Of a DNA stretch of 64,000 bases, positions 1 to 28,410 are shown piece after piece. The position numbers and the translations under genes are program-made. This DNA comes from Amphiscolops sp. MND2022 (Eukaryota): positions 37,698,001 through 37,762,000 of the forward strand of contig OZ076409.1 of the NCBI GenBank assembly GCA_964187785.1, in the 5' to 3' direction. The notes beneath the pieces were generated by a model. That model searched no databases. It was given only the letters and a program-made list of their open reading frames with translations, and was not told where the DNA came from. The stretch's first letter is position 1, and every line of letters starts with the position of its first letter.

Positions 1-505
1 TTGATTAAACCAGTTCTCCAACTTAATTTGCGAAGCATGTCAAATTGCAAGCTACTCACTGAGAGTGCCCAAGATGCTCCATGTTGATTTTCATTTCAGA
101 TATCATCAAAATTGTGATTATTTTTTTCAATTATTTCACATGTATTAAGATGATTCGTGCATTTGAGTTTGGGGCATGTTTGATTTCCTCTGGGATTATA
201 GCATCAAGTGAAATACAAATTTAAAAACCGAACGTATTAGTACAGAACGTATCAATTGATATCTGGAATTTCTCCTATCTGCATACATAGAAAAAGAACA
301 TTTGAAATTTGCATTTTTTGTTGAAGATAAGTTTAAAACAAGTTGTTCCAGAAATTTACTGGGTTTTTACGGTATAATTCATGATTATCAAGACGACTTC
401 TTTGTTCACGAGGTTTCTAGAATACTAACGATCGCCCGGAACATTCTTTTTTCAACTGTAGTTCAAACACTCTAATCATTGTATTGCCACAGGTTGGCCT
501 GCAGC

Positions 506-1230
506 TGTAACGTCCAGCAAAAGACGTCACAAAAATTCGATGAAATGTGCGATAGCAAAATTTCTAAATCAAGATGGCCGACCTGACAGGTACTGAAAAT
601 TGAAAAGGATGATGAAAAAAAGTGCAAACCACCCCCCACCCTACCCGAGAGAGAACACACCGTCACAGAAGTATCGCCGAAATCGCCGTGTTGTGCCATC
701 TCCCTCGGAAGACGTCCCAGCTGCCAGCAGAACCCGAAGAATGGCCCAAGAGATGAAGAAACTCAGAAGTTTGCATATTTTGCATGTGCCACCTAGTAGG
801 TCCAAGACCAAGGCTCGCTGACACTGACGCCTGATGTTTTCTGAATCTATTGTACCATATTTGCGGTTTTTGTAGATGTTTGGTGATGTTTTACCCCTTA
901 TTTCACCCAGTTTAGACGTTATTCACTAATTGAATGCACTTTGGCTAAACCCCTGTTTTTGGACCTCGGAGGTATGTAGGAACACGCAGGAACATTAGGA
1001 ATTGTTTTTACTGGCTTGTGGGACGTGTCCGGACTTTGAGAGAGCCGGCACGTCGCCTCGGAGCTCTAGCTGAGGAGACTCCTTAGGCGTATAGGAAAAG
1101 TCCCTTTTAGGAGACCATTTTGGGATTAAAAACTAATGTCTAGGTTGTAGTAAGACACTGGTCTCCTGTTCAAGCAATCTAGGCATTGTCCCACTTCTAT
1201 GATGTACTCTGCTAGGTGGTTGACGTTACA
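506..1230 (+). repeat. LTR copy 1 of the non-autonomous element
   Basis: TG...CA termini with a 9-bp terminal inverted repeat (TGTAACGTC/GACGTTACA); repeated at 5205 and 9904. Confidence 0.92.
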
Positions 1231-1246
1231 TCTAGAATAGTTTTTA

Positions 1247-1264
1247 TGGCGCCCCACAAGGGAC
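1247..1264 (+). promoter_or_regulatory. Putative primer-binding site, tRNA-Lys(UUU)-like (second copy 5946-5963)
   Basis: TGGCGCCCCACAAGGGAC matches the tRNA-Lys3 PBS TGGCGCCCGAACAGGGAC at 15/18 positions; it lies 16 nt downstream of the LTR end. Confidence 0.65.
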
Positions 1265-4200
1265 ATTTTTCCATCTTTTCGCCATAATTGGAGTTTTTCC
1301 TGCTTTCCGGCCCTGTTAGGTCCAGATCTAGGAAAACATTTTGGAGAGTCCTAGATTATTTTTATTGCCTTAGTCAAGCCTGGTAGGCTTTCTTCTAGCT
1401 GAATTCCTGCGTTTCCTGCATGTTTCCGAGGTCTGAGATGAGAAATAACTGTTTAATTACAAAGTACCGTTTCGACACCGTTTCTCTGTACCGAGATTAA
1501 CCATCCGGCTTAACCGGATTCTGTTTTAAAGGGTTTTGTAGTCTCATTTCAGCTTAGTTGTAATGTATTGGGACTGCAGGGACGTGGTGTGAGCGCCTCC
1601 ACTAGCTGTGACGACGGAGTGACGTCCTTCACGGCAACACCCCATTGACCCACTGGTGGATCACTACGAATCGGCTGGGTTACAATCTCCTTTTTTGTTT
1701 TTGTGGCTTTAAAAGCCTATTCCCAAGCGTACTCCCATTAGTAAGAACTGAGAAAAATACACACTGGGTATTCCGATTGTTTTCTGAAAAAATATAGCGA
1801 GCTAGCTATAACACCCTATATAGCTCTAATTTCGATTTGGTTACTTTTAAAAGTCGAAATTTTTCAGAAGGTAGTACGAACAATGGGAATACAATAAAAA
1901 CGTTCCATTAGACCTATCAGGTCAGGAACAGAAAAATTTGTTTAGCTAAATTGTGAAAAACACCGAAAACTTTAGCGATTTTTGTTTGAAAACGTCAACT
2001 TTGGACTTTGAGACGAAAAATGGTGAGGGCGAAGCCCTGTTCGTTTTTCTCAGAGCATTGCGAGCCACCTAAAATTCTTTTTCCCGAGCCAGATATCAGA
2101 AAACGTTATCGTCAAGCAGTTTTTTGAGGCCCTCCAACGAAATATTGAATAAGTTACCAGCCAATTTTCATTTTCATACAATAGCCATTTATCGGTTATC
2201 ATTAGTTACAAAAGCCAAAATTTTTCAGAAGAGGGTACGGCCAGTGGCAATACAATAAAAACGTTCCACTAGACCTATCAAGCTAGGAACAAAACTTTTT
2301 AACCCGCTAATTTACTTGAAAACAAAAAAAATTAGCGATTTTTGTTTGTGAAGACCCAAAATTGGCCTAACAGATCAAATGTGGTGAGGGCGAAGCCTTG
2401 AGCGTTTGTTCCAAAGCTTTCAGAGCTGCCCAAAAACATTGTTCCCGAGCTTGGTGGTACAAAACACTACTGCCAAGACGTTTTTTACCCTTTCCCAATA
2501 TAAATTGATAGTTTAACCCTTGACTTTCTATTGTTATACATAGACCTGAGTAGAGGACCCCATAGACCTGAGAGTTATAACATCAAAACTAATAATTGAA
2601 ACAATCCCAGTCCCGTGAATAAAGTTATTACACCTTATTACGTTACGTTTAGAACTATCCCGAACATCTGGGAACAGAGAAATGAAAAGTTGCTAGGGAA
2701 AATACGTATTTTTCACATTGTTACCAGAATGTAAAAGGTGTAACTTGAGAATTTTTTGAGAGACCTTATTTGGAACCTACCAGGTTTCGCTTGCCTATTT
2801 TCTGTTATTATAGAGTGTAACGTTACAAACGCAGAAAACCGCGAGTGATTCCAACCAGTGGTTGTTGAGAAATAGCCGAAAACGCGTTATTTTTGCGACA
2901 TTTTGGGAACCATGTAGTAGTGCTTCCAGCACAGGTCGAAATCTCTCCTAGTAGAAGCAGCCTCAAACGGATTGCACCATCGTGTAGACCATAAAAAGTT
3001 ACGTTAGTGGTGTAATTTTCGTAGCGCTAGCACTACTAGTGATTGAGAAATCTTAGCCGAAGTTTTGCTCAAAAATCGTGTGAAAATGTCGAAAAGTTTG
3101 AATTTTAGTTGAGCATAGTGCAATACCTCGCAGGTATCCCAACACTAAAATTCTTGCATTTTCGTGTGCACGGCACAAGAGCACGACGATTTGTGCAATT
3201 TGAGCAGCCGGGTACTAGCGAAAGCTGAGAAATTGACATTTTTGTGATTTTTGACCCGAAAAAGTTGTACCTCTGGTACATCAAGGTTTTATCACTTCAA
3301 ATCACCAGATACTAATTCAGGCACCTCGCCGCCATGTTTTTCTGTTACGTGGGCAAAAGTTACGCTCACCTGCAAAATTTCAGGTAGCTGGGACGCCTAG
3401 AAGGCGAGTTTGACCACTTTTTTTGAATTTCACGACATAGTCAAATTTTCAGTGAACAATGTCAAGTGACCGCGACACACACAGGGTCAATTTTAGCGCA
3501 ATCGGAGGTTTGTTCCCCACGATTCAGCCAGTGTGTTAGATGGTGTGAAATTTTCAGGTCGCTAGCAGCGCTAGAAGTGATTTTCACCTTCCCCGGAGGT
3601 GCATGTTGACGAAAAAATTGTTGATTTTGGGCATTTTTGCAAAAAATCACATAGTTTTTCTCAGTGTACGTGCCAGTGAGGGCCAAGACGACCCAATTAG
3701 CATACCAAGCGCTCTCAAGACGTCTTCTTGAATCACTTTGATTAGTGCTAAGCTGACCCTAAGATGTCGGGTCTCTGAGAAAACCGGTCTACGAGACATA
3801 GAGGTGAAAAACCGAAAATGGAAATTCGCTTCCTGACTGCTATCAAAGTCACCCAAGTGCAATCTATCCATTGTGAACATGCATGCTCGATGTTTTGTGT
3901 ACCCCGTGGGTGCTGGAGCACGTTTATAGGCACTTTTAGAGGTTTAGACTTTGAACGCAGTGCGTCTCAAAACAGAACAACAAGTACACAACTGACTACC
4001 ATAGTTGAAAAAGAACGCTTTTTCAGATCGTACTACGATCGTAAGGCACGAAACCACTTCAAACTCAGTGTCTCTCCTCCTACTCACCCCCAAGGTCTAC
4101 CCGTAGTCCCTATTTACATTTTTGTTATCACTTGTGCTCTCCAGAAACATGGCAGCATGAGTGACGAAACGAATTTTCAGACTATCTAACGTCTGTAGCC

Positions 4201-5196
4201 AAGCAGGCTTCTCAAACAATCAATGTTCGTTGCTCGATTCATGCCTAAGGTAAACCTCGGTACTCGGTACCACAGTTGCATGAACCATATCGATGTGAAA
4301 ACACCGGACAAGAGATTGGCCCGGGGAGCACCTGTACTCTGCCGAAAGGAATCAACATCAAGCATGATAAAACACCTAGAGCTTCGAAGCTCTGAGAACT
4401 GCTTGGCCTGCGGCCGTGCTTTTAAAACTCAAATGATTGCTTTAGAACGCATTTTAATTGCCAAAGACTGTTTTCATTGTTTTAATGATCCACTATACCT
4501 GATTTTTTAACTTCCCTCGGTCATAGTCTATCATCGCTATCGACATAATCATCCTCTTGAAAAGCAGTTTATTTCCATCTTTTACATATACACTTGTGCC
4601 TATGTTACCTACACACACCTTTATCTGAGTGTACACTGCTAACTCAATAGATTGAATGGGTCCTCGCTTTTGGTGATATTTTTGAATTTTTGGGATCTAT
4701 TTCTCTATTTGTGCTTTTTATTGTGCAGTCTCTGTTGGCTATGAACTACGACACTTTTGCAAGACCACAGCCGTTACTTTCATTTTTCGCTTTTCAAGTG
4801 CTATCGTGCATTTTGTAAAACCTAACCTATCAGGTGGGCCCCTGGCCAGTGCCAAACCTGTTGTGATTAGTGCTTTTTATGCAGGTGCAATAAGGTGCTA
4901 GAAATTTTGAAATCTTGGTGCGAAATTAAAAGTTTGAAAATGTTTTGAATAAAAGGCTAAGTGTCTAAAGTTGCTAACGCTATTCCAGCGCTAGAACCCA
5001 TTGTTGGTGTGGAATCCAAGGAAACCTGCTAGGCTGGCAAAAACTAGTGTTTTTGGGCAATAACATGTTCTTGGGCAATGACTTCCATTTAGATTCCTGA
5101 AGTACTGGGTCACAACAGCATCACTGGATCACTGGATGATGGCAACCAAGACGTGAACATCCACTTTCGTTTGTCGAGGACGACAAACTACGGCCC

Positions 5197-5204
5197 GGGG
5201 AGGA
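5197..5204 (+). promoter_or_regulatory. Putative polypurine tract (second copy 9896-9903)
   Basis: GGGGAGGA directly abuts the TGTAAC start of LTR2 and LTR3. Confidence 0.6.
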
Positions 5205-5929
5205 TGTAACGTCCAGCAAAAGACGTCACAAAAATTCGATGAAATGTGCGATAGCAAAATTTCTAAATCAAGATGGCCGACCTGACAGGTACTGAAAATT
5301 GAAAAGGATGATGAAAAAAAGTGCAAACCACCCCCCACCCTACCCGAGAGAGAACACACCGTCACAGAAGTATCGCCGAAATCGCCGTGTTGTGCCATCT
5401 CCCTCGGAAGACGTCCCAGCTGCCAGCAGAACCCGAAGAATGGCCCAAGAGATGAAGAAACTCAGAAGTTTGCATATTTTGCATGTGCCACCTAGTAGGT
5501 CCAAGACCAAGGCTCGCTGACACTGACGCCTGATGTTTTCTGAATCTATTGTACCATATTTGCGGTTTTTGTAGATGTTTGGTGATGTTTTACCCCTTAT
5601 TTCACCCAGTTTAGACGTTATTCACTAATTGAATGCACTTTGGCTAAACCCCTGTTTTTGGACCTCGGAGGTATGTAGGAACACGCAGGAACATTAGGAA
5701 TTGTTTTTACAGGCTTGTGGGACGTGTCCGGACTTTGAGAGAGCCGGCACGTCGCCTCGGAGCTCTAGCTGAGGAGACTCCTTAGGCGTATAGGAAAAGT
5801 CCCTTTTAGGAGACCATTTTGGGATTAAAAACTAATGTCTAGGTTGTAGTAAGACACTGGTCTCCTGTTCAAGCAATCTAGGCATTGTCCCACTTCTATG
5901 ATGTACTCTGCTAGGTGGTTGACGTTACA
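5205..5929 (+). repeat. LTR copy 2 (shared central LTR)
   Basis: Near-identical to 506-1230; preceded by PPT and followed by PBS. Confidence 0.92.
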
Positions 5930-8900
5930 TCTAGAATAGTTTTTATGGCGCCCCACAAGGGACATTTTTCCATCTTTTCGCCATAATTGGAGTTTTTCCT
6001 GCTTTCCGGCCCTGTTAGGTCCAGATCTAGGAAAACATTTTGGAGAGTCCTAGATTATTTTTATTGCCTTAGTCAAGCCTGGTAGGCTTTCTTCTAGCTG
6101 AATTCCTGCGTTTCCTGCATGTTTCCGAGGTCTGAGATGAGAAATAACTGTTTAATTACAAATTACCGTTTCGACACCGTTTCTCTGTACCGAGATTAAC
6201 CATCCGGCTTAACCGGATTCTGTTTTAAAGGGTTTTGTAGTCTCATTTCAGCTTAGTTGTAATGTATTGGGACTGCAGGGACGTGGTGTGAGCGCCTCCA
6301 CTAGCTGTGACGACGGAGTGACGTCCTTCACGGCAACACCCCATTGACCCACTGGTGGATCACTACGAATCGGCTGGGTTACAATCTCCTTTTTTGTTTT
6401 TGTGGCTTTAAAAGCCTATTCCCAAGCGTACTCCCATTAGTAAGAACTGAGAAAAATACACACTGGGTATTCCGATTGTTTTCTGAAAAAATATAGCGAG
6501 CTAGCTATAACACCCTATATAGCTCTAATTTCGATTTGGTTACTTTTGAAAGTCGAAATTTTTCAGAAGGTAGTACGAACAATGGGAATACAATAAAAAC
6601 GTTCCATTAGACCTATCAGGTCAGGAACAGAAAAATTTGTTTAGCTAAATTGTGAAAAACACCGAAAACTTTAGCGATTTTTGTTTGAAAACGTCAACTT
6701 TGGACTTTGAGACGAAAAATGGTGAGGGCGAAGCCCTGTTCGTTTTTCTCAGAGCATTGCGAGCCACCTAAAATTCTTTTTCCCGAGCCAGATATCAGAA
6801 AACGTTATCGTCAAGCAGTTTTTTGAGGCCCTCCAACGAAATATTGAATAAGTTACCAGCCAATTTTCATTTTCATACAATAGCCATTTATCGGTTATCA
6901 TTAGTTACAAAAGCCAAAATTTTTCAGAAGAGGGTACGGCCAGTGGCAATACAATAAAAACGTTCCACTAGACCTATCAAGCTAGGAACAAAACTTTTTA
7001 ACCCGCTAATTTACTTGAAAACAAAAAAAATTAGCGATTTTTGTTTGTGAAGACCCAAAATTGGCCTAACAGATCAAATGTGGTGAGGGCGAAGCCTTGA
7101 GCGTTTGTTCCAAAGCTTTCAGAGCTGCCCAAAAACATTGTTCCCGAGCTTGGTGGTACAAAACACTACTGCCAAGACGTTTTTTACCCTTTCCCAATAT
7201 AAATTGATAGTTTAACCCTTGACTTTCTATTGTTATACATAGACCTGAGTAGAGGACCCCATAGACCTGAGAGTTATAACATCAAAACTAATAATTGAAA
7301 CAATCCCAGTCCCGTGAATAAAGTTATTACACCTTATTACGTTACGTTTAGAACTATCCCGAACATCTGGGAACAGAGAAATGAAAAGTTGCTAGGGAAA
7401 ATACGTATTTTTCACATTGTTACCAGAATGTAAAAGGTGTAACTTGAGAATTTTTTGAGAGACCTTATTTGGAACCTACCAGGTTTCGCTTGCCTATTTT
7501 CTGTTATTATAGAGTGTAACGTTACAAACGCAGAAAACCGCGAGTGATTCCAACCAGTGGTTGTTGAGAAATAGCCGAAAACGCGTTATTTTTGCGACAT
7601 TTTGGGAACCATGTAGTAGTGCTTCCAGCACAGGTCGAAATCTCTCCTAGTAAGAGCAGCCTCAAACGGATTGCACCATCGTGTAGACCATAAAAAGTTA
7701 CGTTAGTGGTGTAATTTTCGTAGCGCTAGCACTACTAGTGATTGAGAAATCTTAGCCGAAGTTTTGCTCAAAAATCGTGTGAAAATGTCGAAAAGTTTGA
7801 ATTTTAGTTGAGCATAGTGCAATACCTCGCAGGTATCCCAACACTAAAATTCTTGCATTTTCGTGTGCACGGCACAAGAGCACGACGATTTGTGCAATTT
7901 GAGCGGCCGGGTACTAGCGAAAGCTGAGAAATTGACATTTTTGTGATTTTTGACCCGAAAAAGTTGTACCTCTGGTACATCAAGGTTTTATCACTTCAAA
8001 TCACCAGATACTAGTTCAGGCACCTCGCCGCCATGTTTTTCTGTTACGTGGGCAAAAGTTACGCTCACCTGCAAAATTTCAGGTAGCTGGGACGCCTAGA
8101 AGGCGAGTTTGACCACTTTTTTTGAATTTCACGACATAGTCAAATTTTCAGTGAACAATGTCAAGTGACCGCGACACACACAGGGTCAATTTTAGCGCAA
8201 TCGGAGGTTTGTTCCCCACGATTCAGCCAGTGTGTTAGATGGTGTGAAATTTTCAGGTCGCTAGCAGCGCTAGAAGTGATTTTCACCTTCCCCGGAGGTG
8301 CATGTTGACGAAAAAATTGTTGATTTTGGGCATTTTTGCAAAAAATCACATAGTTTTTCTCAGTGTACGTGCCAGTGAGGGCCAAGACGACCCAATTAGC
8401 ATACCAAGCGCTCTCAAGACGTCTTCTTGAATCACTTTGATTAGTGCTAAGCTGACCCTAAGATGTCGGGTCTCTGAGAAAACCGGTCTACGAGACATAG
8501 AGGTGAAAAACCGAAAATGGAAATTCGCTTCCTGACTGCTATCAAAGTCACCCAAGTGCAATCTATCCATTGTGAACATGCATGCTCGATGTTTTGTGTA
8601 CCCCGTGGGTGCTGGAGCACGTTTATAGGCACTTTTAGAGGTTTAGACTTTGAACGCAGTGCGTCTCAAAACAGAACAACAAGTACACAACTGACTACCA
8701 TAGTTGAAAAAGAACGCTTTTTCAGATCGTACTACGATCGTAAGGCACGAAACCACTTCAAACTCAGTGTCTCTCCTCCTACTCACCCCCAAGGTCTACC
8801 CGTAGTCCCTATTTACATTTTTGTTATCACTTGTGCTCTCCAGAAACATGGCAGCATGAGTGACGAAACGAATTTTCAGACTATCTAACGTCTGTAGCCA

Positions 8901-9903
8901 AGCAGGCTTCTCAAACAATCAATGTTCGTTGCTCGATTCATGCCTAAGGTAAACCTCGGTACTCGGTACCACAGTTGCATGAACCATATCGATGTGAAAA
9001 CACCGGACAAGAGATTGGCCCGGGGAGCACCTGTACTCTGCCGAAAGGAATCAACATCAAGCATGATAAAACACCTAGAGCTTCGAAGCTCTGAGAACTG
9101 CTTGGCCTGCGGCCGTGCTTTTAAAACTCAAATGATTGCTTTAGAACGCATTTTAATTGCCAAAGACTGTTTTCATTGTTTTAATGATCCACTATACCTG
9201 ATTTTTTAACTTCCCTCGGTCATAGTCTATCATCGCTATCGACATAATCATCCTCTTGAAAAGCAGTTTATTTCCATCTTTTACATATACACTTGTGCCT
9301 ATGTTACCTACACACACCTTTATCTGAGTGTACACTGCTAACTCAATAGATTGAATGGGTCCTCGCTTTTGGTGATATTTTTGAATTTTTGGGATCTATT
9401 TCTCTATTTGTGCTTTTTATTGTGCAGTCTCTGTTGGCTATGAACTACGACACTTTTGCAAGACCACAGCCGTTACTTTCATTTTTCGCTTTTCAAGTGC
9501 TATCGTGCATTTTGTAAAACCTAACCTATCAGGTGGGCCCCTGGCCAGTGCCAAACCTGTTGTGATTAGTGCTTTTTATGCAGGTGCAATAAGGTGCTAG
9601 AAATTTTGAAATCTTGGTGCGAAATTAAAAGTTTGAAAATGTTTTGAATAAAAGGCTAAGTGTCTAAAGTTGCTAACGCTATTCCAGCGCTAGAACCCAT
9701 TGTTGGTGTGGAATCCAAGGAAACCTGCTAGGCTGGCAAAAACTAGTGTTTTTGGGCAATAACATGTTCTTGGGCAATGACTTCCATTTAGATTCCTGAA
9801 GTACTGGGTCACAACAGCATCACTGGATCACTGGATGATGGCAACCAAGACGTGAACATCCACTTTCGTTTGTCAAGGACGACAAACTACGGCCCGGGGA
9901 GGA

Positions 9904-10628
9904 TGTAACGTCCAGCAAAAGACGTCACAAAAATTCGATGAAATGTGCGATAGCAAAATTTCTAAATCAAGATGGCCGACCTGACAGGTACTGAAAATTG
10001 AAAAGGATGATGAAAAAAAGTGCAAACCACCCCCCACCCTACCCGAGAGAGAACACACCGTCACAGAAGTATCGCCGAAATCGCCGTGTTGTGCCATCTC
10101 CCTCGGAAGACGTCCCAGCTGCCAGCAGAACCCGAAGAATGGCCCAAGAGATGAAGAAACTCAGAAGTTTGCATATTTTGCATGTGCCACCCAGTAGGTC
10201 CAAGACCAAGGCTCGCTGACACTGACGCCTGATGTTTTCTGAATCTATTGTACCATATTTGCGGTTTTTGTAGATGTTTGGTGATGTTTTACCCCTTATT
10301 TCACCCAGTTTAGACGTTATTCACTAATTGAATGCACTTTGGCTAAACCCCTGTTTTTGGACCTCGGAGGTATGTAGGAACACGCAGGAACATTAAGAAT
10401 TGTTTTTACAGGCTTGTGGGACGTGTCCGGACTTTGAGAGAGCCGGCACGTCGCCTCGGAGCTCTAACTGAGGAGACTCCTTAGGCGTATAGGAAAAGTC
10501 CCTTTTAGGAGACCATTTTGGGATTAAAAACTAATGTCTAGGTTGTAGTAAGACACTGGTCTCCTGTTCAAGCAATCTAGGCATTGTCCCACTTCTATGA
10601 TGTACTCTGCTAGGTGGTTGACGTTACA
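9904..10628 (+). repeat. LTR copy 3
   Basis: Near-identical to LTR1/2 (about 3-4 substitutions seen); homology ends exactly at GACGTTACA. Confidence 0.92.
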
Positions 10629-11176
10629 AGCCATAGTGTTATTATCAAGATACACTACGACAACTACCATCTTGTTTTAGGAAACCCGGGTGTCTTTTCA
10701 GCCTGTGTTGTGTGAACTCCAATTCTAACTCAGTTTTTTGATTTTTTCAATCCTTCATTTTCATTGTAATGAGCAAAAACTCAATGGCAGGACTATTACC
10801 AGAACGATGATCGGTTGGTCATCCCGCATTGACTGTGACATTTCATATACTCTAGTGGAACAAATGGTTTCTGTGCCAACATTTGATCGATGAGTCATTG
10901 TCGCAGGCTATGGCCTGCGGCGGGAAATACTACCAAATAACTCCTGATTACGACAACTCAATGCCTCCGACAGGGACTTTGCCATTATAAGATGACTTGG
11001 ACATGAGGTCAACCGGCAACAGCAACATACTTTCAAACACATGTCAACTCTATGTATGCTGATTGTTATACTATTAAACATCTGTACTCACGTATTATTT
11101 CAAATACAGTAGTAACCGGAGCTACACTAACCTAACTATGACCTTAAACTAACGCCAAAAAAAATGACCTTAAACT

Positions 11177-14100
11177 AAAGTCAAATTAACGCCAAACGAT
11201 AACTCTCCTGCCTTTAGCCAGAGTTAACCAACACCAATTAACCTCGAGGAGGACATCCTCAAAGAACTAGCACAATTACACCGTTACGGGATAATAACAA
11301 CCCTACTGTTTTCCATATAAACAAGCCCGATTTTCGCCCAGAAGAAGCCGAACGGAAATTTGATACATACTTCTCGTCAACCTGAGAAAGATCAACATTA
11401 TAATTTTTGATGTTTACATCAGAAAGGTTCATCCTGTTGGCACTCTGACGACTGCCGCGCATCATATGGCTGGTAAAAGGCTCTTCTGCAAACGGGATTG
11501 CTCTCAAGCATACCATAGTCTGCAAATTGCTGACGAAAGGTCAATTGAGATGCTATCGTTTATTTTCGCAAGGAGACCCTTTGCTCACAGGAGATTAGCG
11601 CAAGGTCTTAATCAAGCTTTATCGGCTTGCTTCAGCTTCATGAGCGAATACCTAGGCAAAGTGATCAAAGCCGATCAATACACACCAGTATGTCCACGAA
11701 ATTGGATAGCTGTCAATGACGCTTAGCAACTGATCAACAACACAACCTTAGAGCATTTTTCCAATACATCCAGAAGGCTGCACTCAAACTAACGATGCAT
11801 GAATGCCATTTCGGAGCCACGAAAAATGACGTTCTTGGACGCACAATCGCCCCTGAAGGAGTGCCGTCACAGAGATCTAGGGTCCAAGACTTCCGGGAAA
11901 AAACGAATTTCCCAAAATCCAAGAAAGCCTTGCAAAAATGGTTTCTCAATTACTATCGCGACTACGTCCCCAGGCTCTCAGAAAAAATAACCCCTTTTTT
12001 CAAATAATTAACGAAAGATGAAAAAGTCCTTGTAACACCGACCCCGTTGGAAAAACTCTTCGAAATTAACAAGGCTCTTGATCAACGCTGTGAACTTGCA
12101 CTCAAACAACCTCTGCCGAACAAACACTTTGCGCTCTTGACCGACGCTAGCTTCTCGGCAGCTGGTTATGATCGACGATGATCCATTTGAGAAGTATACT
12201 TCAACGAGGAGGGCATTCTCACTAGTAGCTTGCTGATCTAGAGTCCTACCCAATTGAAAATTGTTCCTTTACCCTGAAAAATCTTGGCAATATTTTTTGC
12301 CTTTGAAGAATTCGGACATGTTTTTGAGGAACCCCAAACCGGTGATTATCCTCACCGACAACATGTTGGTCACACAATTTTTCAGAACGAAAATCATACC
12401 ACTCACATTGTGGAAGGCATGTGACTACGTCATCAAAGTTCAATTCCACTATAGCCCATATCCCATGCAGAAATAACACGTCTCGAAATCTCACCAAACA
12501 AGAAAATGATACTGTGAATACTGGAGGATGTTGCGACAACGCCTAATGAGCTCATCGTAAAATCTGCAGGAATCGCCGATGAGGATCAAATCTTCTACAC
12601 CGACGATGACGAAGAAACTGAAGAACAACTCTGGCAAAGATAGAAAGAAGCCAGAAACCACCCGTCCAACCAACTACCGGACATTTGTTAGCGAAATTTA
12701 GCACTCACCATAGTCCATATCCCAAATTGACTACTTCACAAAAACTGTCCAATAAGACCACTTTGACCATCGAACAAAACAACGAAATATTTCTTCAACA
12801 AGTACGGCTTAAACTGTTGAAAGAAGAATGCTCAGAAACCATTGTACAACAACGTAACCGTTATCGCCACTACTGCAGTCAGATTGACCGTCTGTATATT
12901 CAAGACGACATTTTCATCAAAAAATTTTTGATGAAACAGGAAGTATTCAATACCATCTAGCATTAATTATACCCTAAACAATTAGTCATGGAATTGCTGT
13001 AATCACTTCACGGAACAGCCATCAAACATCCGGGAATTTCAAAGATGCTATAGGAAACTCACCAAAAATATTCATTTCCCTGGAATAGCAAAAATTGTCA
13101 AGAAATGGGTACACGGATGCGAAATATGCATCAAACACAAGCACTATTCAATTTACCAAAATGAGATGTAGGCCCAGAGGATGTCTTACAAACCGACATG
13201 TTGCCTAATTTGTCCGCAAGTGGAGGGTATGAGAACATAATATCAGCACTAGATGTTTTCTCTAGATAACTATTTGCTCACCCAGTCACGGTTGCTTCAG
13301 CAGCAACCACCGCGAAAGACATAATGAGAAGAGACACTCACCTGTCCACCACTCTGACCGCTGACAAATGGTCTGCCTTTACATCCAAGTTGGTAGCCGA
13401 GAGTGCACAGATTTCAGGCTTTCAAGCAAACTGTGCGGCGGCGAAGCATCCACAGACGATTGGTAAACTAGAACGAAGGCATGCTAGCCTTAAAACCAAC
13501 CTTATAATGGACTCTGGTGCTTACAGCGTCAATGGCTTAAATATCTTCCATTGGCAGTGCTTAACTACAATTCAACTTTTCATTCGAGCTTAGAATTTGT
13601 ACCTTCACGAATTTTACATGGACGTGTGCCCTATAATAACTTAAATCATATGTTAAGACCTAATCCTAACCCCAAGATCCTACCGACAACAGTTTTTACA
13701 GAAAAGTTTCGCTGCTGCACGCAAATACTTATTGACACGACGAAGAGAAACATCATGCAGTGGTACTTAAAATACAAAGAATACTACTACCGAAAAACAA
13801 GAGAAGCCCCATTCCAAAAGCGAGACTACTGTTTCATACTGCAACTGTTAGCATTTTATCAAGGTTCAAAAATCCTGTTTCGCAACTTCTGGTGGACAGG
13901 ACCTTATGTCATTGAAAATGTTCTACCGAATGACAACTACATCGTCCGTAAACTCAATTCCAAGCAAACACAAACTTTACACGGAATAAGATTACGAAAA
14001 TACAAACCAAATGAACGTTAGCGAGATGACCATCCGTAAAGAAATTTACAAGCTGATGACGAAATTGTTATCTCACAGGTTGATCTCTGTATTAATTCGT

Positions 14101-14595
14101 GAGAAACTGAATTTCGCGTTTTTCCGACTTATTCAGACAATAGAAACGTTCTAGACAAGGCCTCTACTGATTCTGCACAGCACAACGCTGAAATGACAGA
14201 TTTGGACCTTCGGTTCACTCGACTGCAGCAAGACACTGATGTCACTGCTACCGAAACACAACAGAACGACTCAGCTAACTTGGACATTACGTCCACTGGA
14301 CCGCATCAAACAACGGAAGCAGCTGACACCGAGCGGCGGACTTGGGATGAAAGGGATGACAACCTTACGTCTACTTGACCGGAGCAAAAAACTGATTTCG
14401 AAAGGGACGATATAAGTTCTACGGAAACCAACGAACCTCATGCGTTCGAAAAGACTATTCCGGCGGGAGCAATACAATCGTGCCCGACATACCAGACACT
14501 GAAAATGACAGATTGGTGTGGAGAATGAAAGTCCTGGGGAAAGAAAATATAACCTACGTCCCAACCCCAGCTATTCAGAAGAATTCAGATACTAT
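11177..14595 (+). pseudogene. pol: Degenerate Ty3/Gypsy pol (RT, RNase H, integrase, C-terminal tail), 5'-truncated
   Basis: Fragments SPIFAQKKPNG, LFCKRDCSQAYHSLQIAD (RT), LLTDAS and PVIILTDN (RNase H), HPQTIGKLERRHASLK (integrase), WTGPYVIENV (GPY/F) and ERKYNLRPNPSYSEEFRY tail. Many stops and frameshifts. Confidence 0.88.
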
Positions 14596-14767
14596 AAAAT
14601 TTTACTGGTTAACGCAGAATAATAATAACCAGTATCAAGACACCACAATGGCACAACAGAAATCAAATAAACACTGTCAAGATAAATCAACACACAATCA
14701 ATACACCAACTAACAAACAGACATAGTACAAAAATACAAACAAAATACAAGGCAACACAATGTACAA

Positions 14768-16620
14768 TCACTCAAGGTCTTTTTCAGAGAGGGGAGTAAT
14801 CGAACTCATTGACGTTTCGCTGTCTGATGGACGCTTGGCAAACAACTTTTTGGGCCGTGTTGGAGGCAGACATCTCGAAGCGCCACTATTCTTTGGCTCT
14901 CCAAACATTATATTCTTTTCCACAGCCCGACGCTTCGAGACAGCAGGTTTCAGCTTAGTGAGGATATTAGCACGAGCGGAGTGATCTAGGCCATCCCAAG
15001 GACTGTAAATGTCGGAAAAGGATGGGCCATCAAACGTAGGTTCAAATATCAAGAACTTAGAAATAGGAGGAGCTGTGGTGAAGGCATCGATACTTCGTCC
15101 CAAATCAATGAAATAGAACTGCACGTGTAAAATAATGTCCGCGAGCTTGCTTTTCGGATCATCAGTTTGCACGGGACCAAACTACACGGGAGGCATTTCG
15201 TCATAGCCTTCGCCCAAACTCAGGCGATTTAGTTTGAAATTGCGGGCTAAATGCGGACGGGACTTCAGGTCGCCATGACTCGCAATGTATGGAACGGCAT
15301 CAAAGTTGACCGCCCCGTGTTGATAAAGCTCCATCATTTCCTTCCTCAACTCATCCAGGAAGGACGGATACTCCTCACTACAAATTGACTCGTCATGAGG
15401 CTGGAAATACTCGCGGAGCTGGAACCTTCGAAAAAGCTGCTTAAACTAATAGACACTAATAGACAGCCTGTTCCAATATTGCACAAATAATGATGTCTAG
15501 GTCGAAAAAGCACAGACCTATCACGATATCAGAGGTTAACTGTGGAATAGAATGGTTACTCTGGAATAAAAATACTACATACCTTCGCCTCAGACCACCG
15601 GATTCCTCTTTCATGTCTTTAATGAGTTTAGTCAAGCTGACATCATCTCTTTTCGTCTCACTCACCTCTCTCTCAGCCTTGATCTTGCAAGCTGTATTAA
15701 GTCTCTGGTCAAGCTCTGATCGGGCAAGGAAATCGGGCATAGCGAGAGCCCAGGCATCGCACACGACAATATCCAGAATACCAGCAAGGTCAGACTCCTG
15801 AGGAAGACCTTTAACCTTGAAACATAGCCTTCCAAGCTTAAATAAAAAATGGCATAGCTGTCGATAAAAATGGAATTCGTGATCTCGTCTCTTAGCCAGT
15901 TTAGAATTGAAACTGGTAGTATCTGAGGGAGACTACCCAATTTCTTTAGTACACATGAGAAAAGCAGCGACCGAGGCTGTTTACATTCTTTGACCAGGCC
16001 ATAGAACAGCTCAAGCCGACATAAAAAAGTTTTTCACCATCTCCAAATTCTGTGGCTATAACAACTAAAAAAAAATGAGAAATGTTACCAAGTGGATGGG
16101 TAGTCGATTTGTCTATAATACCTAACTGGTCTTCTTACTCCCATCATTCCTTGAGGAGGAACGTGGGTATCCAAGAACTCAGTTACGTTCGTCCAATTTG
16201 CTAACAACTCCAGACACAAAGTAGAAGTTGTGGCCAAGTTGAATTGGAAAAGGCATGGCCAATCATGATACGAAGAGTTGTGCATATAAGCGTACTTTTG
16301 AGATCAAAAGACCGGAAAGCTTGCACATGAAGCGGGAAAAAGTCGAGCTGGACCATAAAAGCAGCAAACATAAAAAGAAGCAATACCCCGACTAGAGTAA
16401 CAAGCAGATATGTATGGGTCCTGATTGAAACAACTGATCGTTGACGAAAACGATTTTGAAATTGAACGAACGTTCTTTTGGACGGATCCGACAATTGTTT
16501 TTCCATTGTTGCATAGAGAGCTTACAAGGAACAAACGGTATTTGTTGCACACAGAGTCGCTAAGATCCTTAATATTTCAACCACTGGAGGCATGTCAGAA
16601 GAAAGAAAGAAGATGATTCG
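14768..16620 (-). pseudogene. Decayed antisense accessory gene downstream of pol (homologous to 28549-31862)
   Basis: Minus-strand coding fragments (LFRRFQLREYFQPHDE...PVQTDDPKSKLADIILHVQ...; GILDIVVCDAWALAMPDF). GT-AG-like junctions near 15437, 15582 and 16065-16088. Shares a WxxA[ML]P[DE]F motif with the second element. Confidence 0.6.
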
Positions 16621-16879
16621 CCACGAACCTCATTGCACTTGTTTCAACAGAAAACAGAAGACATAGAGCAAGTCTTTAAAGTCGTGTCAGAAGGAAATGC
16701 CATAGATTGAGAGAAGTTCGGTTCTTTCAGAAAAAGGACACGGATTTTCGTCTACTGTCTTCGGTTCCAATCACAACTCAAGGGAAAAGTCGTTATGATA
16801 GAAAACTTGCATCAAGTGATCCAAGTGCAACTGCGGAAAAGCAAGATGGATGGCTTTGGTCCAAATTATCAGACATTGG

Positions 16880-17420
16880 TTTCAGGTAGACCTATGGCAG
16901 CATCTGATCACTTGAACAAACTATCTCAATTTTCGGACAATCAGGAGCTCATGTGATTAACTCATGTTGAAACTAATTATGACACGAAACATCCAATTTG
17001 GTTGTCTGCGAAGGATCCGATAGTTGGGAAATTAATTGAAGATACGCACGAAAAAAAACAATCACGGAATAAATTCGGCTTAGTTTGCAGCAAAATTAAT
17101 GGATAATTAGAATCCGAAACGCTCTCAGAAACGTGAAGTCGAAGTGTGGCAAATTTAGAAAACAACAAGTTGGGAACTTTCAACCTTTCATAGCAAACCT
17201 GTCTAAAGAACGTTAGGGAGAAAAGGTTTTTCCTTCTGCCACTACTGGAGCAGAATAATTTGGATCATTCGAAATGAGATTCAAGAGGATATCGAAGAAA
17301 CGATGGTGTTGTCTTTTCACACGTTTGACAACATGAGTTATACATGTTGAAGTTGTACCCAGCCTGGAAGCCGACACATGTCTCGATGCCATTACAAGAT
17401 TCATCGCTAGAAAAGGAAAA
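16880..17420 (+). pseudogene. BEL/Pao retrotransposon integrase relic
   Basis: Plus-strand fragments KHPIWLSAKDPIVGKLIEDTH and KRWCCLFTRLTT*VIHVEVVPSLEADTCLDAITRFIARKG, typical of BEL/Pao integrase (CLxTRAVHLE...RFIARRG). Confidence 0.8.
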
Positions 17421-17811
17421 CTCGATGGCAGAGCAGATGATGTACTACCCACAACCATGTATCTAGTCGAGCAGATATCAGTGACGATCCTGAAGGTTTG
17501 CAAGCTTTGACTCCAAATGATCTTCTGTAGGACGAGCGAGTCCAGCAACTCCCCTTTTTCCTGTCCTGACGCACAGCGACATACAGATCTGCGAAGAGCA
17601 TTCATTAATATTCAGAGTATCACAAGCACATTCAGATATGATCTGGTGGAGCAGATGCAACAATGAATATTGTAAATATTGGAAGTCTAGCATGACCGCG
17701 ATGGTGACATCAGTGCAGGTGAAAAAAGAAGATCGAATATTAAAAAAACAGCAGTTAAATAAGCACTCTTAGTCTGCGAAAGTGTGTTTCAGGAGAAAAA
17801 CAGGGCCGGCA

Positions 17812-18118
17812 AGATTGGTACCAGTCAATTCCAAGACGCAAAAGTTGTTTCGAACGTTACTGATGAAATTTTGAACTCAAACACTTAGAAACTTTGTCGA
17901 GATTTTAGTTGGAAAAGTACAAATTTCAGCAGTAGGCTTGAGTGCAATCACACCATCATCCCTCACTGGTTGAAAAACTCATACAATCACCTCGAAACTT
18001 GCGACACATATACCGGTGTAATAACCTAAAATTTCACTCGGTGCACCCAACCCTTTGCCACGTGGATGCCGAGCAACTACCACTGAATTGACCTCGGTAA
18101 ACCCAATTTTGCTAAACA
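17812..18118 (+). repeat. Possible 3' LTR of the BEL/Pao relic
   Basis: Follows purine-rich GGAGAAAAACAGGG and ends in ...AAACA. No second copy in the window, so boundaries are uncertain. Confidence 0.3.
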
Positions 18119-20090
18119 AGTTTCTGTATATTTCTCATTCGACCTTGAAGGAAAAATACCTTTGTTGAAATCAATGTTATTTACATTGTGTAACTTCATA
18201 TTATGCTTCAAATGTCTTTTGTTTATACCTACTTATATTTGATGAATATTTACTAAGGAATTGTGAACCAAAAACATACCTTTACTAGATATAGATTTTA
18301 AATCACACAATAGTTGTAGTCAAATTGGGTCTCAGGACCGCCAGACTACTTGATTTTCCATATCGTCACAAATGTTTGCAAGAGTCAAAGCGAACAAAGA
18401 GCTACTCTCATAGTTGGAGTGTCGGAGCGCGTAAATTCACAGAGCGAGAAGTTTGTGATGGGTCTCAGAAGATCTAACGAGTAAAGCGGGATCGTAGGAG
18501 TTCACACGGGTCACATCGGACCCACCAGCTAAAAGATATAGTCCTTCTTAAACACGAAAACCAGAATTCTTTAGTAACGGTCCACGGTACTAAACAACGG
18601 ATTAGGGCGGCGTAAAGCTTGTCAATGATATTGGCAAGCAGCCGTTACAGGTATTGTATTTTTGTAGTCTTAGGATTGTGTCCATCGTGATAAGTTACGA
18701 TCTTGGAATAATTTACTATCTTAGTAGGATCTTAATGAGAATCTTGCCATGGGTTCCATGGTCGAAAAGTTGTAGTAGGAATTTAATAAGATCTTGCCAA
18801 GACAGCCAATATGCTATTAAGAGGGTCATCCCGGGCGGTCAAGTGAAATTGTTTTTATTAATACCTGAAATAACAGTGACAACCAATCATATTGCAGTAT
18901 TCTATAAGTCTAACTCATCGCTCGCTGATACTGGGGAGGGGCGATAAAAAACTTTCCGCGTTAATGGGGGTTGTTAACAGAAAACAGATGTCATCGTTTA
19001 TTTGTTTATTTTTTGAGTTCCGTGGGAGAACGTTTCTGAAGCATGAAGTGTTTTTTGATACACCCAGTTTTTTTCAGAACACTACCCACAGATCGAGGCT
19101 TAATTTTTCTTAAATGACCGTCAGAATGAGACTCAAAAGATTTCATGTTCCTAAATTTTCGACAATTTGAGGCTCGAGATATCCTTAATTTCTAGAAATC
19201 GAAAGCTTTTCACTACCACGCGTGATAGAGTTTTGTAAGCGATGCAAGTATCGGGCTCTTTATTCGGCTCTTTATCATAACGGCTGGCACGTACGAAAAA
19301 CCGCATACTTCAGCAAACCCAAGCAGATGTTAAAATTGACTACCAAGTTAATTGAATTGACTATATTAGTCCTTCTGAAATTGTGCTGATGTTTATTCTG
19401 TTGATGTGAATTTCAATTTGAGCCTCTGTGGCGTTCTTGAAGTGTTCTTGTTTTTTTTCTTTCTGAGGCTAGTGTTCGTATAAAGTGTTTTTTATAAAAA
19501 ATTGGATGTAATGATTTCACTCCCCCAGATATGAAACGAGAGTGGAAATGAATTTACAGTAGTCATTTACAATGAGTTAACGTAATGATGAACTGTAGAT
19601 TCAAAGCATCAAACTCTCAGAACGCTTTGTCAAAAATTTCACAGGTTGATCTTCAAAACTTCAATTTCCAAGAAAGAAGGCTAGCTATACTTCATTTTTG
19701 GCGCCAAATTTTTTCCAATGGTGCTCAATAAAAAGTAGTTAGCCTCCGCACAAGTTATGACATCAGAAGCGGTTATTTTCATGAACGAATGGTTAATCAG
19801 AATCGAAAGATTTTGAAGCAGAAAAACACAATAGACTATGTTTTGAGCTTGATTAGCGGAAAAAATCTGCATCCCATTAAAATTTTGAGCTTTCATTAAT
19901 TATGAAAGCTGAAAATTCCGTCTTCTACAGAGAATGACTATTTTGTCTGTTTCATCTTTTCAATTGAAATCAATTAAAAGTTTACATTTAGGTTCGTGAC
20001 GATTGAAATGTACAAACAGTGCACACTATCTTGGAAATAAAGCTTGCTTTTTTGACTAAGAAATCAACAATCTTGCAAGATTTTGTTAAG

Positions 20091-23000
20091 AATGAAAAAA
20101 CGCTTTCCTTTCTCGATCAACAAAATTCATGAAAATGGTTTTTACTACGAAACAAAATCTTCCAGGAAAATTCAAGAATACCCAGGATCTTGTAACTAAA
20201 AATAACTAAAAATAACTAAGAAAGCCACGAATAGCGTGAACAAGCAAGAGGTCTCACAATTCTCGTGTACAACGTATCCCACCGCATGAAAAACATGAAC
20301 CACAATTTTTCAGGAATCAAACCCGGCATCAAGATGTAAAACCTAAAATCACAGCGGACTTACTCTAAAACCACTTTTTCAACTACTGTTGTACTTCAAA
20401 TACGCAAAACCATGGAATTTATTGAAATACTGCACTTCTTGTGGACTTTACAGAGCGTTATGTGTTAACGTGTTAGAAAAGTCGGATAGGGAGCTGAAAA
20501 CGTTGGGTCTCCGGATTTTTTCACAGGTTCAAGGCATTTCGAGATCTTATGAAGACTTTCAATAAGTAACGGGAACTTGTACAAAATCCTATTCGTTTTC
20601 AATCAAGACAGTTCACATTGGGTTTGTCATCAACTGATTCAACCTTCACATGATGCGAGAATGAACAAAATTTCAGTACAAAAAACTGAAACGGTAATTG
20701 TTTATGTAAATACGCATTTAACTGTCAGTGTTAATTTAACACTGTCAACGTTACGTTATTTATGAATTCCCTAGTTGCAACTGCTTGAAACTTTTACATT
20801 ATTTTAGAGGCTACCAAGCACTTTTAGCATGATTTTTAGAGTTTCATAGAGAATGATCAATGCTAAATATTCCCTTCTTGAACTTGCTTGAACTTTTTAT
20901 ATGTTCTTTAAAGTTGCCAGCACTTTTTCAATGATTTTCTAAATCTCTTGCGGAAAGTTTAATGCATTAATATTCCCTGTTGTCATCAACTTTTATCAAG
21001 CTGCTTCAAAGAACTATTCACGTTTTGGCGGCTATTTCAAGACGTGAAGTTTTGCAAGTTTTATTATGCATCAGTTTTAATTTTAAATGCATCTGAGACG
21101 TCAAAAAGTTTACCGCCTGTTTAATGCAAATTAACTTCATTCGCAATGTGAACAACAAACTAGCGTCATCTCCGGCGTCCTGTTTGAGAAGCGGTGATTA
21201 ACATAGATGGGTAGTTGAAAAATAAATGTGTGAATTCAACGTAATCGTGTCCGTAAAGAAGGGAAAGTATTTTCAAATTTAATTGCAGTATTAGAGAATG
21301 CAGAGTAATTCTACAAGATTTATCACCGGATGGTCACTGAATTTTTTAGGTTTTATAAAAAATACCCTGCATGCAGGCCTGTAGCATGTAAAAATTTCAA
21401 GCAGACTGAACTAAGATTTCCCTAAGGCAATGATATTTCTTTTTGCTAGTACTGAAGCTACAGTATGATGTAAACAAAACTTTTGCGTGTGCCAGTGTGG
21501 CAAACGAATTCGTATAACTGGAATTTTTTTCGATGGAAATTTTTTTTGCTTGGAAACTGTTTCAAACGGTAATTATTATATATTCTTTGGGCAAAGCGAA
21601 AACTTGTTAATTATTAAGTTCTTCGAGGTTTTTTGGGGAACTACTTCAAAAGCGGAATATTAGAATCAGCTGTTTTGATTGGGTGAAATGTTTCATCGCA
21701 TTAAATCAGAAAAAAACTGAGAAACTGAGAAAAACAAAATCTTTGAAATAACTTTAAAAAGTTCACCGATGAACTCAACAGTTATGGAACTAAATACGTA
21801 TATCGTGTTTTTTTTATATTGGGATGATTCTTTTTCTCATATCTTTTTCAATTGAAAGTTTTTCTGCCTATTTTGTCAGCCATTAGGGACGCTAAGGATT
21901 AGCAATACTGTTATCGACAAGATTTTATTGAATAAGTGGAGATTTGCGCTAAGAAAATGGTCGTTATTGAAGAAAATGTTTACAGTCTTGCATGGATTTT
22001 TTTTTCAAAATAGCTTTAGGCAGCTTGGACATTTTTTCAAAGCACAGGGAAATGCTGCCAGGATTTTCCAAGCTGCAGGGAAGTTTTGCAAGAATTTTCC
22101 ATGGAGGGTCACTGAGTTTTCTATGTTTTTATAGAAAATTAGTCTGCGCGCATTAATGCTGCATGTAAAAAGTTCCTGTAGTTTGGACCACGGTTCAAAG
22201 CATCGGTTTTAATTATAACTTAAAGGTTGAGATAAAATTAGTGACAAAAAGATGTCATTTTGAATAGAATTTTCATCCTTGGAGATTTTCACAGACAACT
22301 TTTTACATACTTCTCGAAGAACTTACCTGAACTTTTTACATCTTTTGGGGAAACACTAAGCTCCTAAATACCACCGGCGAAGTCACAATAATTTTCTACA
22401 GAGAAGAAAAACAAGGTTTTGAAGAGATAAAACGGATAATGACAAAAAAAATAGAAGAAAGACGTCGTTGAACAAAAGTACAAGTACGTAGTAGAAGAAA
22501 ACGAGGAACTTCAATCATTCATGTCTACAGTTAGATGTTACACACTGAAAAACGGGATTACGTTGTGAAAACAAATGGTCTTGCTGCTATTGTGGCTCAG
22601 ATAAAATCAATTCTATCAAGGATCTTGCAACATCTTTAATGATGCAGCCCTTTAAAGATGTTGCTATTAAACATGTTCTGTCAACAAAATTCTAAAATCT
22701 TCCAAAAATTCATGCCATTTTTTTTCTCAATAGATAAATGAATCCGAGGGTAGAAATACCGTAGTCAAGACTGCTGGAAAACTTTACATGCTGCAGACCT
22801 GCAACAGGTTAACCCGATAGTTATTTATTCTGCAATTGATGGTACTAATCATATATTTGTAAGAGTATGAAGAATATACGAATGAAAAAACGCTTTCCTT
22901 TCTCGATCATTAAAATTTATGAAATGGTTTTTACTACGAAACAAAACTTTCCGGGAAAGTTCCAGAATACCCAGGATCTTGTAACTAAAAATAACTAAAA

Positions 23001-27610: not shown

Positions 27611-28263
27611 CCGAGGTACACCTTGGGCATGAATTGAGCAACCAACACTGATTTTTTTGAGAAGCCTACTTGGCTACAGATGTTAGATTGTCTGAAAAGT
27701 CCGTTTGTCACTCATGCTGCCCTTTTTCTGGAGAGCACAAGTGAGGACGTAAATGTGACCAGGGACTGGGAATAGGAAGAGGAAGGACACTGAGTTTGAA
27801 GTGACTTCTTGCCTTACGATTGTAGTACGATCAGAAAAAGCGTTCTTTTTCAACTATGGTAGTCACTAGTGTACTTGTTGTTCTGTTTTGAGACGCACTG
27901 TGTTCAAAGTCTAGACCTCTAAAAGTGCCTATAAACAAGCTACAGCGCCCACAGGGTACACAGGGAACCAAGCATGCGTGTTCACAACGAAAAACTTGCT
28001 CTTAGGTGACTTTGATAGCAGTCAGGAGGCAAATATCAGTTTTTGGATTTTCACCTTTATGTCTCGTAGACTGTTTTATCAGACACCCGACATCTTAGGG
28101 TCGGTTTAACACTAATCAAAGCCATTCAGCAGGAAGTGCTGAGGGTGCTTGGTATACTAGTGAGGTCGTTTGTGGACTCACCGGCACGTACGATGACAAA
28201 AGGTTTTGCGATTTGTCTTGAAAAATTACAAAATCAACAATTTTTTCGTCAACATGCACCTCC
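27611..28263 (-). mobile_element. Diverged inverted fragment of the non-autonomous element internal region (equivalent to about 3596-4260)
   Basis: Shared blocks in reverse complement, e.g. GAAAAAGCGTTCTTTTTCAACTATGGTAGTCA, GTGTACTTGTTGTTCTGTTTTGAGACGCACTG and AAAATCAACAATTTTTTCGTCAACATGCACCTCC. Confidence 0.88.
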
Positions 28264-28410
28264 TCTCCATCTCCATCCCCAGAAAATAAAGCTGAAAATC
28301 GAGAAAACCATGAGGTTCAAAAAGAAAAACCCCCTACCAATACGCGTGGTGAAAAATACAATCAACGACCCAACCCAAACCCTAACTTCTCAGATTCATA
28401 CAGATACTAA
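28264..28410 (+). pseudogene. pol: 3' tail of a Gypsy pol (rest deleted)
   Basis: Reads ...PPTNTRGEKYNQRPNPNPNFSDSYRY*, the same terminal motif as the pol ending at 14521-14595. Confidence 0.7.

Follow-up and report, generated by a model that had tools for sequence, protein, structure and literature searches.

A tandem pair of large non-coding LTR elements

We analysed a window of 64,000 nt from Amphiscolops sp. MND2022 (GCA_964187785.1, contig OZ076409.1, positions 37,698,001 to 37,762,000), in which positions 506-10628 hold a tandem array of a long terminal repeat (LTR) element without protein-coding capacity. By self-BLAST, three 725-bp LTRs and two 3974-bp interiors alternate head to tail, the middle LTR being common to both units. 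The overlapping 5424-bp units (506-5929 and 5205-10628) were 99.8% identical, with 11 substitutions and no gaps, and 506-1230 also matched 9904-10628. The array and its relatives in the window comprise the following features.

506-1230, forward strand: LTR1, 725 bp, TG...CA, 9-bp terminal inverted repeat
1231-5204, forward strand: interior 1, 3974 bp, non-coding
5205-5929, forward strand: LTR2, the common middle LTR, 1 difference from LTR1 and 3 from LTR3
5930-9903, forward strand: interior 2, 7 substitutions from interior 1, one of which weakens the hairpin near the polypurine tract
9904-10628, forward strand: LTR3, 725 bp
5197-5204, forward strand: polypurine tract (PPT) adjoining LTR2; a copy at 9896-9903 adjoins LTR3
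503-505, forward strand: left 3-bp flank AGC, recurring at 10629-10631; a possible non-canonical 3-bp target-site duplication (TSD), or chance
1841-2125 and 2202-2486: old duplication within the interior, 361-bp spacing, 72% identity
27611-28263, reverse strand: older interior relic, 81.6% identical to 3595-4260
57490-57869, forward strand: older truncated LTR relic, 77.8% identical to LTR nt 1-379, beginning exactly at the LTR 5' terminus

Each LTR has TG...CA ends with a perfect 9-bp terminal inverted repeat. Direct terminal repeats, TG...CA and inverted ends, all typical of LTR retrotransposons, are thus present, and the relic at 57490 has the same 5' end. LTR1 and LTR2 differed at one site, LTR2 and LTR3 at three, LTR1 and LTR3 at four (LTR positions 289, 493 and 564 are among the sites of difference) and the two interiors at seven. 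A preliminary description of this DNA had proposed the LTR-interior-LTR-interior-LTR layout with about ten differences, a PPT, and relics at 27611 and 57490; we recovered all of these, with 11 substitutions and no indels between units and purine tracts adjoining both LTR2 and LTR3. Its view of a long-lived family is likewise upheld by the relics at 78-82% identity together with relatives, detected through a spurious open reading frame (ORF), at 58-94%. As a control within the window, the LTRs of a coding Gypsy element at 51015-56277 differ at 9 of 193 sites, which would make the array, in relative terms, roughly 10-30 times younger than that element.

A non-coding interior that belongs to a dispersed family

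The longest stop-free frame in the interior spans 136 aa (3779-4189, forward strand); we judged it spurious and used it as a probe for other family copies. A Pfam search of the six interior frames, with X read-through, returned nothing better than E 0.07, and as a positive control the same scan found integrase domains in an adjacent decayed pol. Substitutions relative to the relic were not biased by codon position (25/19/15 in the 136-aa frame; mod-3 p 0.46).

With the 136-aa probe, 24 of 30 candidate clusters passed, comprising 76 member sequences on ENA contigs from an organism or possibly several. These clusters lie at 58-94% identity, and five of them have 6-17 members. Starts and frames vary among the copies, many are truncated and frameshifts are present, so that the family "proteins" are, as far as their sequences can tell, mis-called genes on repeat copies. 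The mean BLOSUM62 score of amino-acid changes was -0.68 against 12 in-frame hits and -1.03 among five multi-member representatives, compared with -0.46 in a neutral simulation and +0.24 in gag and pol controls; the changes among family copies therefore look neutral. We rejected a coding interior on the combined absence of Pfam matches and codon bias, the neutral-looking changes, and the frameshifts and truncations. The interior is therefore, on sequence evidence covering about 3600-4280, a trait of a dispersed multi-copy family with several subfamilies. The Pfam scan, codon-position test and BLOSUM62 comparison bear out the earlier claim that 3974 bp hold no coding capacity, and the non-coding interior and multi-copy family agree with the proposal of a young, large non-autonomous LTR element.

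Searches of JGI metagenomes and IMG/VR gave 0 matches to a family-specific pattern and 0 to a pattern spanning the junction at the primer-binding site (PBS), with one unrelated match otherwise, and 0 for a neighbouring pol. Rfam yielded no family at gathering score, nor any match to 5S or tRNA at E up to 1; a histone stem-loop hit at 1681-1722 (E 0.004, under the gathering score) was treated as chance. [quoted passage not shown] An LTR retrozyme was rejected as well, with 0 matches to a hammerhead core-plus-stem-II pattern on either strand and no Rfam ribozyme match.

A Ty3/Gypsy-like signature at the 3' end

Just upstream of the PPT the element carries a hairpin that the preliminary description had left out, along with the LTR-leader helix and the 10-bp A/T periodicity described below.

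5170-5189, forward strand: 8-bp hairpin with AGGA loop; the same motif, with covarying outer stem, occurs in Ty3/Gypsy elements

We searched JGI data for the hairpin core followed by a free gap, the PPT and TGTAA, allowing lengths of 28-51, and obtained 44 matches in 42 loci, with lengths concentrated at 36-41. The four stem positions outside the pattern were Watson-Crick in 41 of 44 cells, with 11 distinct flank types, compared with a mean of 20.3 and a maximum of 35 in 5000 shuffles. Upstream ORFs of at least 150 aa numbered 20, of which 19 were scanned; 17 of these 19 were retrotransposon-derived, 12 carried SH3_Tf2-1 and 7 Chromo, and none had BEL or Copia domains. We therefore assign the 3' end of the element as Ty3/Gypsy-like, a feature that it has in common with chromoviruses; the helper would be a Ty3/Gypsy element, probably a chromovirus-like one. 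A BEL/Pao helper was rejected: against 150 BEL-type proteins only three queries reached E 0.005-0.04, as expected by chance.

PMC3601003, in the part available, calls for a systematic search of PPT hairpins, and our literature search, mostly outside subscription journals, found no description of an AGGA-loop hairpin before the PPT. As separate observations on the JGI matches, in one family (L003, L005, L009, L031, L032, L042) the hairpin-PPT unit occurs twice, at a spacing of about 200-270 bp, and one locus (L019:91-5364) encodes a chromodomain Gypsy polyprotein with a SET-domain match (E 2.7e-05) between RNase H and integrase.

Two candidate primers for minus-strand synthesis

The region between LTR1 and the interior offers two ways of priming reverse transcription, which involve these features.

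1247-1264, forward strand: tRNA-type PBS-like motif beginning TGG
1231-1246, forward strand: 16-nt spacer from the LTR end to the PBS-like motif, complementary to LTR 1127-1144
1127-1135, extendable to 1144, forward strand: candidate transcription start and putative self-primer, overlapping ATTAAA at 1125-1130

The earlier proposal of a PBS-like site holds in that a motif starting with TGG is present, but its position is unusual and it may not serve as the primer site: it lies 16 nt past the LTR, compared with distances of 2-5 nt at 7 of 7 control junctions primed by tRNA and of 0 nt in the coding Gypsy of the window, which has a 5-bp TSD. Positions 1247-1264 are a putative tRNA-Lys-type PBS; no tRNA genes were found in the 64-kb window.

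The element might instead prime itself, with transcription starting near 1127 and the first 9-18 nt of the RNA annealing to the 16-nt spacer, as in the Tf1/sushi chromoviruses; the tRNA-type motif would then be a vestige or a structural partner. This possibility, which we hold only tentatively, would account for the distance of 16 nt between the LTR and the motif, and with a start at 1127 the RNA 5' end would no longer contain ATTAAA. The duplex (9 perfect bp, an internal loop and 6 bp; -11.9 kcal/mol) covers exactly the spacer and terminates at the LTR boundary, and its energy was attained by 1.35% of 2000 shuffles and, among 461 natural 16-mers, by 0.4%, although these p-values are optimistic since several pairings were tried. 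In Tf1, too, the primer duplex terminates at the LTR boundary. As neither partner is paired in the nested fold, a pseudoknot could form, and forcing the 9-bp core cost only 0.9 kcal/mol in an RNA starting at 1127. However, the duplex appeared in no minimum-energy fold (pair probability at most 0.06), the flush 9+6-bp form cost 7-10 kcal/mol, and the TGG-starting motif itself speaks for a tRNA. Self-priming is described for Tf1/sushi in the consulted parts of PMC10085805, PMC4600332 and PMC6317226, and the 3' signature here is chromovirus-like; PMC10085805 describes a three-duplex pretzel of the Tf1 type, of which a U5-IR-like stem and the 9-bp core were seen here but the third duplex, next to the PBS, was not found. 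On balance a tRNA is somewhat the likelier minus-strand primer, self-priming comes second at well below even chances, and some other primer seems unlikely.

A further pairing was given little weight. Positions 1100-1117 are the best ungapped match in the window (13 of 18) to the complement of the PBS-like motif, but 26% of 1000 shuffles reach the duplex energy, and the coding Gypsy of the window also has PBS-LTR complementarity (-19.6 kcal/mol).

A predicted duplex joins the LTR and the leader

Folding the RNA of 940-1450 gave -185 kcal/mol (z -5.5), with 109 pairs joining LTR 953-1202 to interior 1231-1442. The predicted duplex thus involves the 3' half of the LTR and the first 210 nt of the interior.

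957-1118, forward strand: LTR side of the predicted duplex, with one strand of a 26-bp helix at 957-982
1246-1438, forward strand: leader side of the predicted duplex, with the other strand of that helix at 1413-1438

At its core, 957-982 pairs with 1413-1438 in an unbroken 26-bp helix (pair probability 0.98), beyond which 9 more pairs follow. With its 7 G·U pairs, this helix is seen on the sense strand only; the evidence for strand bias consists of 4 of 4 G·U substitutions within the Watson-Crick-anchored core, and of 7 over the helix as a whole. The longest helix reached 15 bp on the minus strand, 13-18 in 60 shuffles, 13-16 in six control Gypsy junctions and 13 in the Gypsy of the window.

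The LTR contains a single TATA word, at 1090, and a single poly(A)-like word, ATTAAA at 1125-1130. If transcription started near 1127, or anywhere past about 1000, LTR 957-1118 would be U3 and present only at the 3' end of the RNA, and the duplex would close the genomic RNA into a 5'-3' panhandle beside the primer site. In a fold of the modelled 4731-nt genomic RNA with a start near 1127, the ends closed via the same helices, the 26-bp one being the longest. If the start instead lay upstream of 957, the same helix would form a 5' leader domain. RNA structure throughout is a prediction for one copy, and within it a long end-to-end stem may help a borrowed reverse transcriptase to copy the element. 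Our literature search, mostly outside subscription journals, found no description of such a duplex in a non-autonomous element.

Origin of the tandem

The outer flanks of the array have 3 bp (AGC) in common, a match with a chance of about 2%. No exact 4-6-bp repeat was found at the array ends, even with termini shifted by up to 3 nt. In a test for clean insertion based on flank collinearity, neither flank usefully matched any of 193 proteins or other DNA of the window; the Gypsy relic to the right begins only at 11177, beyond the array.

LTR2 has the LTR1 state at three sites and the LTR3 state at one, and the relic at 57490 polarises the LTR3 state at LTR position 289 as derived. The middle LTR is therefore intermediate, and divergence is greatest between the two outer LTRs, with four differences. 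According to the portions of PMC1950507 at hand, an intermediate middle LTR between most-different outer LTRs is the pattern of recombination products, and insertion of a dimer by template switch or read-through is marked by flanking TSDs and highly similar outer LTRs. Because the array has the former pattern, post-integration homologous recombination between LTRs fits best, by sequence comparison, as the origin of the tandem. Such recombination could have been an unequal crossover inside a single insertion, close to the LTR 5' end, or could have joined two near-identical copies, or one copy and a cDNA; a recombined tandem need not carry a 4-6-bp TSD.

Alternatively, the dimer could have been inserted as one unit, through a template switch between co-packaged RNAs, a read-through transcript or a circle-derived concatemer. 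The LTRs carry 4 changes in 2175 bp and the interiors 7 in 7948 bp (p 0.27), so all parts may be equal in age, and the 3-bp flank match could reflect an aberrant single integration; PMC1950507 documents the mechanism itself, and PMC11899658 and PMC7215508 discuss it, as far as those texts were available. Yet the outer LTRs are the least alike and a 4-6-bp TSD is lacking, and nested folds gave no difference in poly(A)-signal accessibility between the 5' and 3' LTR contexts that might promote read-through; the idea that the leader occludes the poly(A) signal and so drives read-through dimers was unsupported in these folds. We consider insertion as a unit unlikely. Of the two mechanisms put forward in the preliminary description, recombination between LTRs fits best, and integration of a read-through or circular intermediate is weakly disfavoured by the differing outer LTRs and the lack of a 4-6-bp TSD.

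A mis-join of two loci or haplotypes through an LTR would yield the same layout, with slightly different interiors and no TSD, and the family has many close copies. Against such an assembly artefact, the 11 differences are all substitutions, with no homopolymer indels, and the 3-bp flank match is improbable by chance. Moreover, long contigs and a 200-N gap suggest a scaffolded long-read assembly, whose reads should span 725 bp; we rate this explanation as slightly less likely again than insertion as a unit. The gap in question is a run of exactly 200 N at 59915-60114, a scaffolding gap.

The terminal inverted repeat, with its 9 perfect bp, could together with the 3-bp flank match also suggest that the 725-bp repeat is a DNA-transposon miniature inverted-repeat transposable element (MITE) with a 3-bp TSD, or that the element derives from Troyka, which generates 3-bp TSDs and has non-autonomous members, as PMC12440569 states in the part seen. 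But the single repeats lack TSDs of their own and are adjoined by a PPT and a Gypsy-type hairpin, and Troyka has CG...CG termini and 100-400-bp LTRs (PMC12440569) where this element has TG...CA and 725 bp. We rejected both identities on these grounds, as very improbable.

A/T periodicity and neighbouring repeats

AA/TT dinucleotides recur with a period of about 10.1-10.2 bp, both in the LTR (z 3.2) and across 2500-3900 (z 4.0), a periodicity reached by 0 of 300 run-preserving shuffles in each case. The highest AA/TT scores of the window fall in the array; a block near 36751 scores higher by a tract measure, and the relic at 27611 has no such periodicity. A preprint (10.64898/2026.08.08.743475), as far as its text was available, links such phasing to silencing escape in C. 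elegans and notes it in young L1; LTR elements are not treated in that text. Any function of the phasing here is speculation.

A BEL/Pao integrase-region relic lies at 16400-17900 (shown near 17121-17435), and 7 of 9 scanned relatives carry Peptidase_A17. BEL/Pao elements are not known outside animals, so that the relic supports an animal host, in line with the animal-type genome suggested earlier.

Several other repeats lie elsewhere in the window. The coding Gypsy at 51015-56277 (reverse strand) is decayed, with 193-bp LTRs (95% alike), a 5-bp TSD, a PBS adjoining the LTR and termini unrelated to those of the array. Relics of a high-copy Gypsy family lie at 11177-14600 and 28280-32300; some relatives carry a dUTPase domain (PF00692), and open frames on the opposite strand come after pol. 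The pol end of one of these relics adjoins, back to back, the interior relic at 27611-28263. The remaining observations are as follows.

20087-25657: a 2.79-kb AT-rich unit duplicated head to tail, 94.9% identity, ends without LTR features
32961-34097: a 378-aa open frame without Pfam match, possibly a retroelement accessory ORF
34696-35327, 44578-45207 and 58546-58875: a dispersed 630-bp repeat family with A/T tracts, in both orientations, MITE-like
40955-41483 and 45724-46251: 530-bp direct repeats (93.8%) flanking a Gypsy relic and overlapping a gag-like frame; not a clean LTR pair

Discussion

We consider it probable that the array consists of a protein-less LTR retrotransposon of about 5.4 kb, resembling a large retrotransposon derivative (LARD) and helped by a Ty3/Gypsy element, and that it is a young dimer formed by LTR recombination after integration. 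Its structure, lack of coding capacity, multi-copy family and Gypsy-type 3' signature are the established part. RNA polymerase II would transcribe the element from the 5' LTR, the long duplex between LTR 957-1118 and leader 1246-1438 would form, a Ty3/Gypsy helper would carry out packaging and reverse transcription in trans, and plus-strand priming would occur at the PPT.

Several observations weigh against this reading. The minus strand folds similarly well (z -5.7), so the z-score alone reveals an inverted repeat and not an RNA function; 4 of 20 control blocks elsewhere in the window reach helices of 21-32 bp; and the panhandle depends on a candidate transcription start. No helper with these termini was found in the 64-kb window, where no chromovirus-type integrase end was matched either. 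The JGI collection is likely skewed to plants, fungi and algae, so that the chromovirus link may be a sampling effect and, the collection being probably poor in animals, non-chromoviral animal Gypsy elements could equally be candidates as helpers. The tandem is a feature of the assembled sequence. Of its two routes of origin, an unequal crossover within one insertion requires a normal 4-6-bp TSD, which is not present, and recombination between loci requires the 3-bp flank match to have arisen by chance (about 2%). Finally, LTR and interior divergence do not differ significantly (p 0.08-0.27), which leaves room for insertion as a dimer.

The closest parallel is with LARDs, which have large interiors without gag or pol remnants that are common to many copies, as seen here. 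Dasheng and Sukkula are two such elements. LARDs likewise combine a multi-kb non-coding interior, LTRs, a PBS-like site, a PPT, a family-wide lack of gag and pol, and RNA structure, which is predicted in our case (PMC7215508, in the part consulted). The present element differs in its animal-type host, the PBS-like motif 16 nt off, the long LTR-leader duplex and the absence of a canonical TSD. Among animals, mouse ETn and VL30 are 5-6-kb non-coding LTR elements moved in trans, ETn using a tRNA-Lys PBS; both are retrovirus-derived, whereas nothing in the element here points to a retroviral helper.

Tandems with a shared LTR, such as rice TLI loci, BARE1 complexes, Drosophila LTR tandems and Cassandra arrays, have the same layout, at least 99% identity and the same candidate mechanisms (PMC11899658, PMC5932611, PMC1950507, PMC7215508; each as far as available). 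The unit here is large and wholly non-coding, only two units are present, and the flank match is 3 bp and not 5 bp; in rice, 10 of 28 tandems have perfect 5-bp TSDs (PMC11899658). The preliminary description had cited tandem arrays for TRIMs such as Cassandra; such arrays do exist, but the available text of two studies indicates that they are not special to TRIMs, being common for full-size elements in plants (PMC11899658) and reported for most LTR families in Drosophila (PMC5932611).

The RNA features recall two other systems. [quoted passage not shown] With chromoviruses, including Tf1/sushi, the element shares the PPT-proximal AGGA-loop hairpin found in chromodomain-bearing Gypsy elements, as well as a sequence next to the LTR that is complementary to part of the LTR about 100 nt upstream. 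Unlike Tf1/sushi, it is non-coding, with neither integrase nor chromodomain, and has a tRNA-type motif too, and the third pretzel duplex was not found.

A bolder combination of these features seems to us unlikely to hold as a whole: a satellite without coding capacity, served by a chromovirus-type helper, in an invertebrate-type genome, its RNA looking like an engineered substrate for replication, with an approximately 110-bp panhandle bringing U3/R up to the primer site, a Tf1-like self-primer beside a vestigial tRNA PBS (a priming switch in transition), the covarying AGGA-loop hairpin, 3-bp target duplications on TG...CA ends, and 10-bp phasing resembling periodic A/T clusters (PATC) that helps it escape silencing. 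The consulted parts of PMC2864245 and PMC10085805 list chromoviruses from plants, fungi and vertebrates only. If true, TG...CA ends combined with a 3-bp TSD would be new to classification, and so would an invertebrate helper of the chromovirus type.

Our verdict is that the element functions as a LARD would, has Gypsy affinity and sits in an ordinary tandem; its putative cis-RNA features are unusual. The tandem itself is of small significance, as such structures are common. If the LTR-leader duplex covaries across subfamilies, end pairing of the yeast Ty1 type, in a much longer form, would be used by an animal Gypsy parasite, and the element offers a clean view of the cis signals that an LTR retrotransposon retains once freed from coding.

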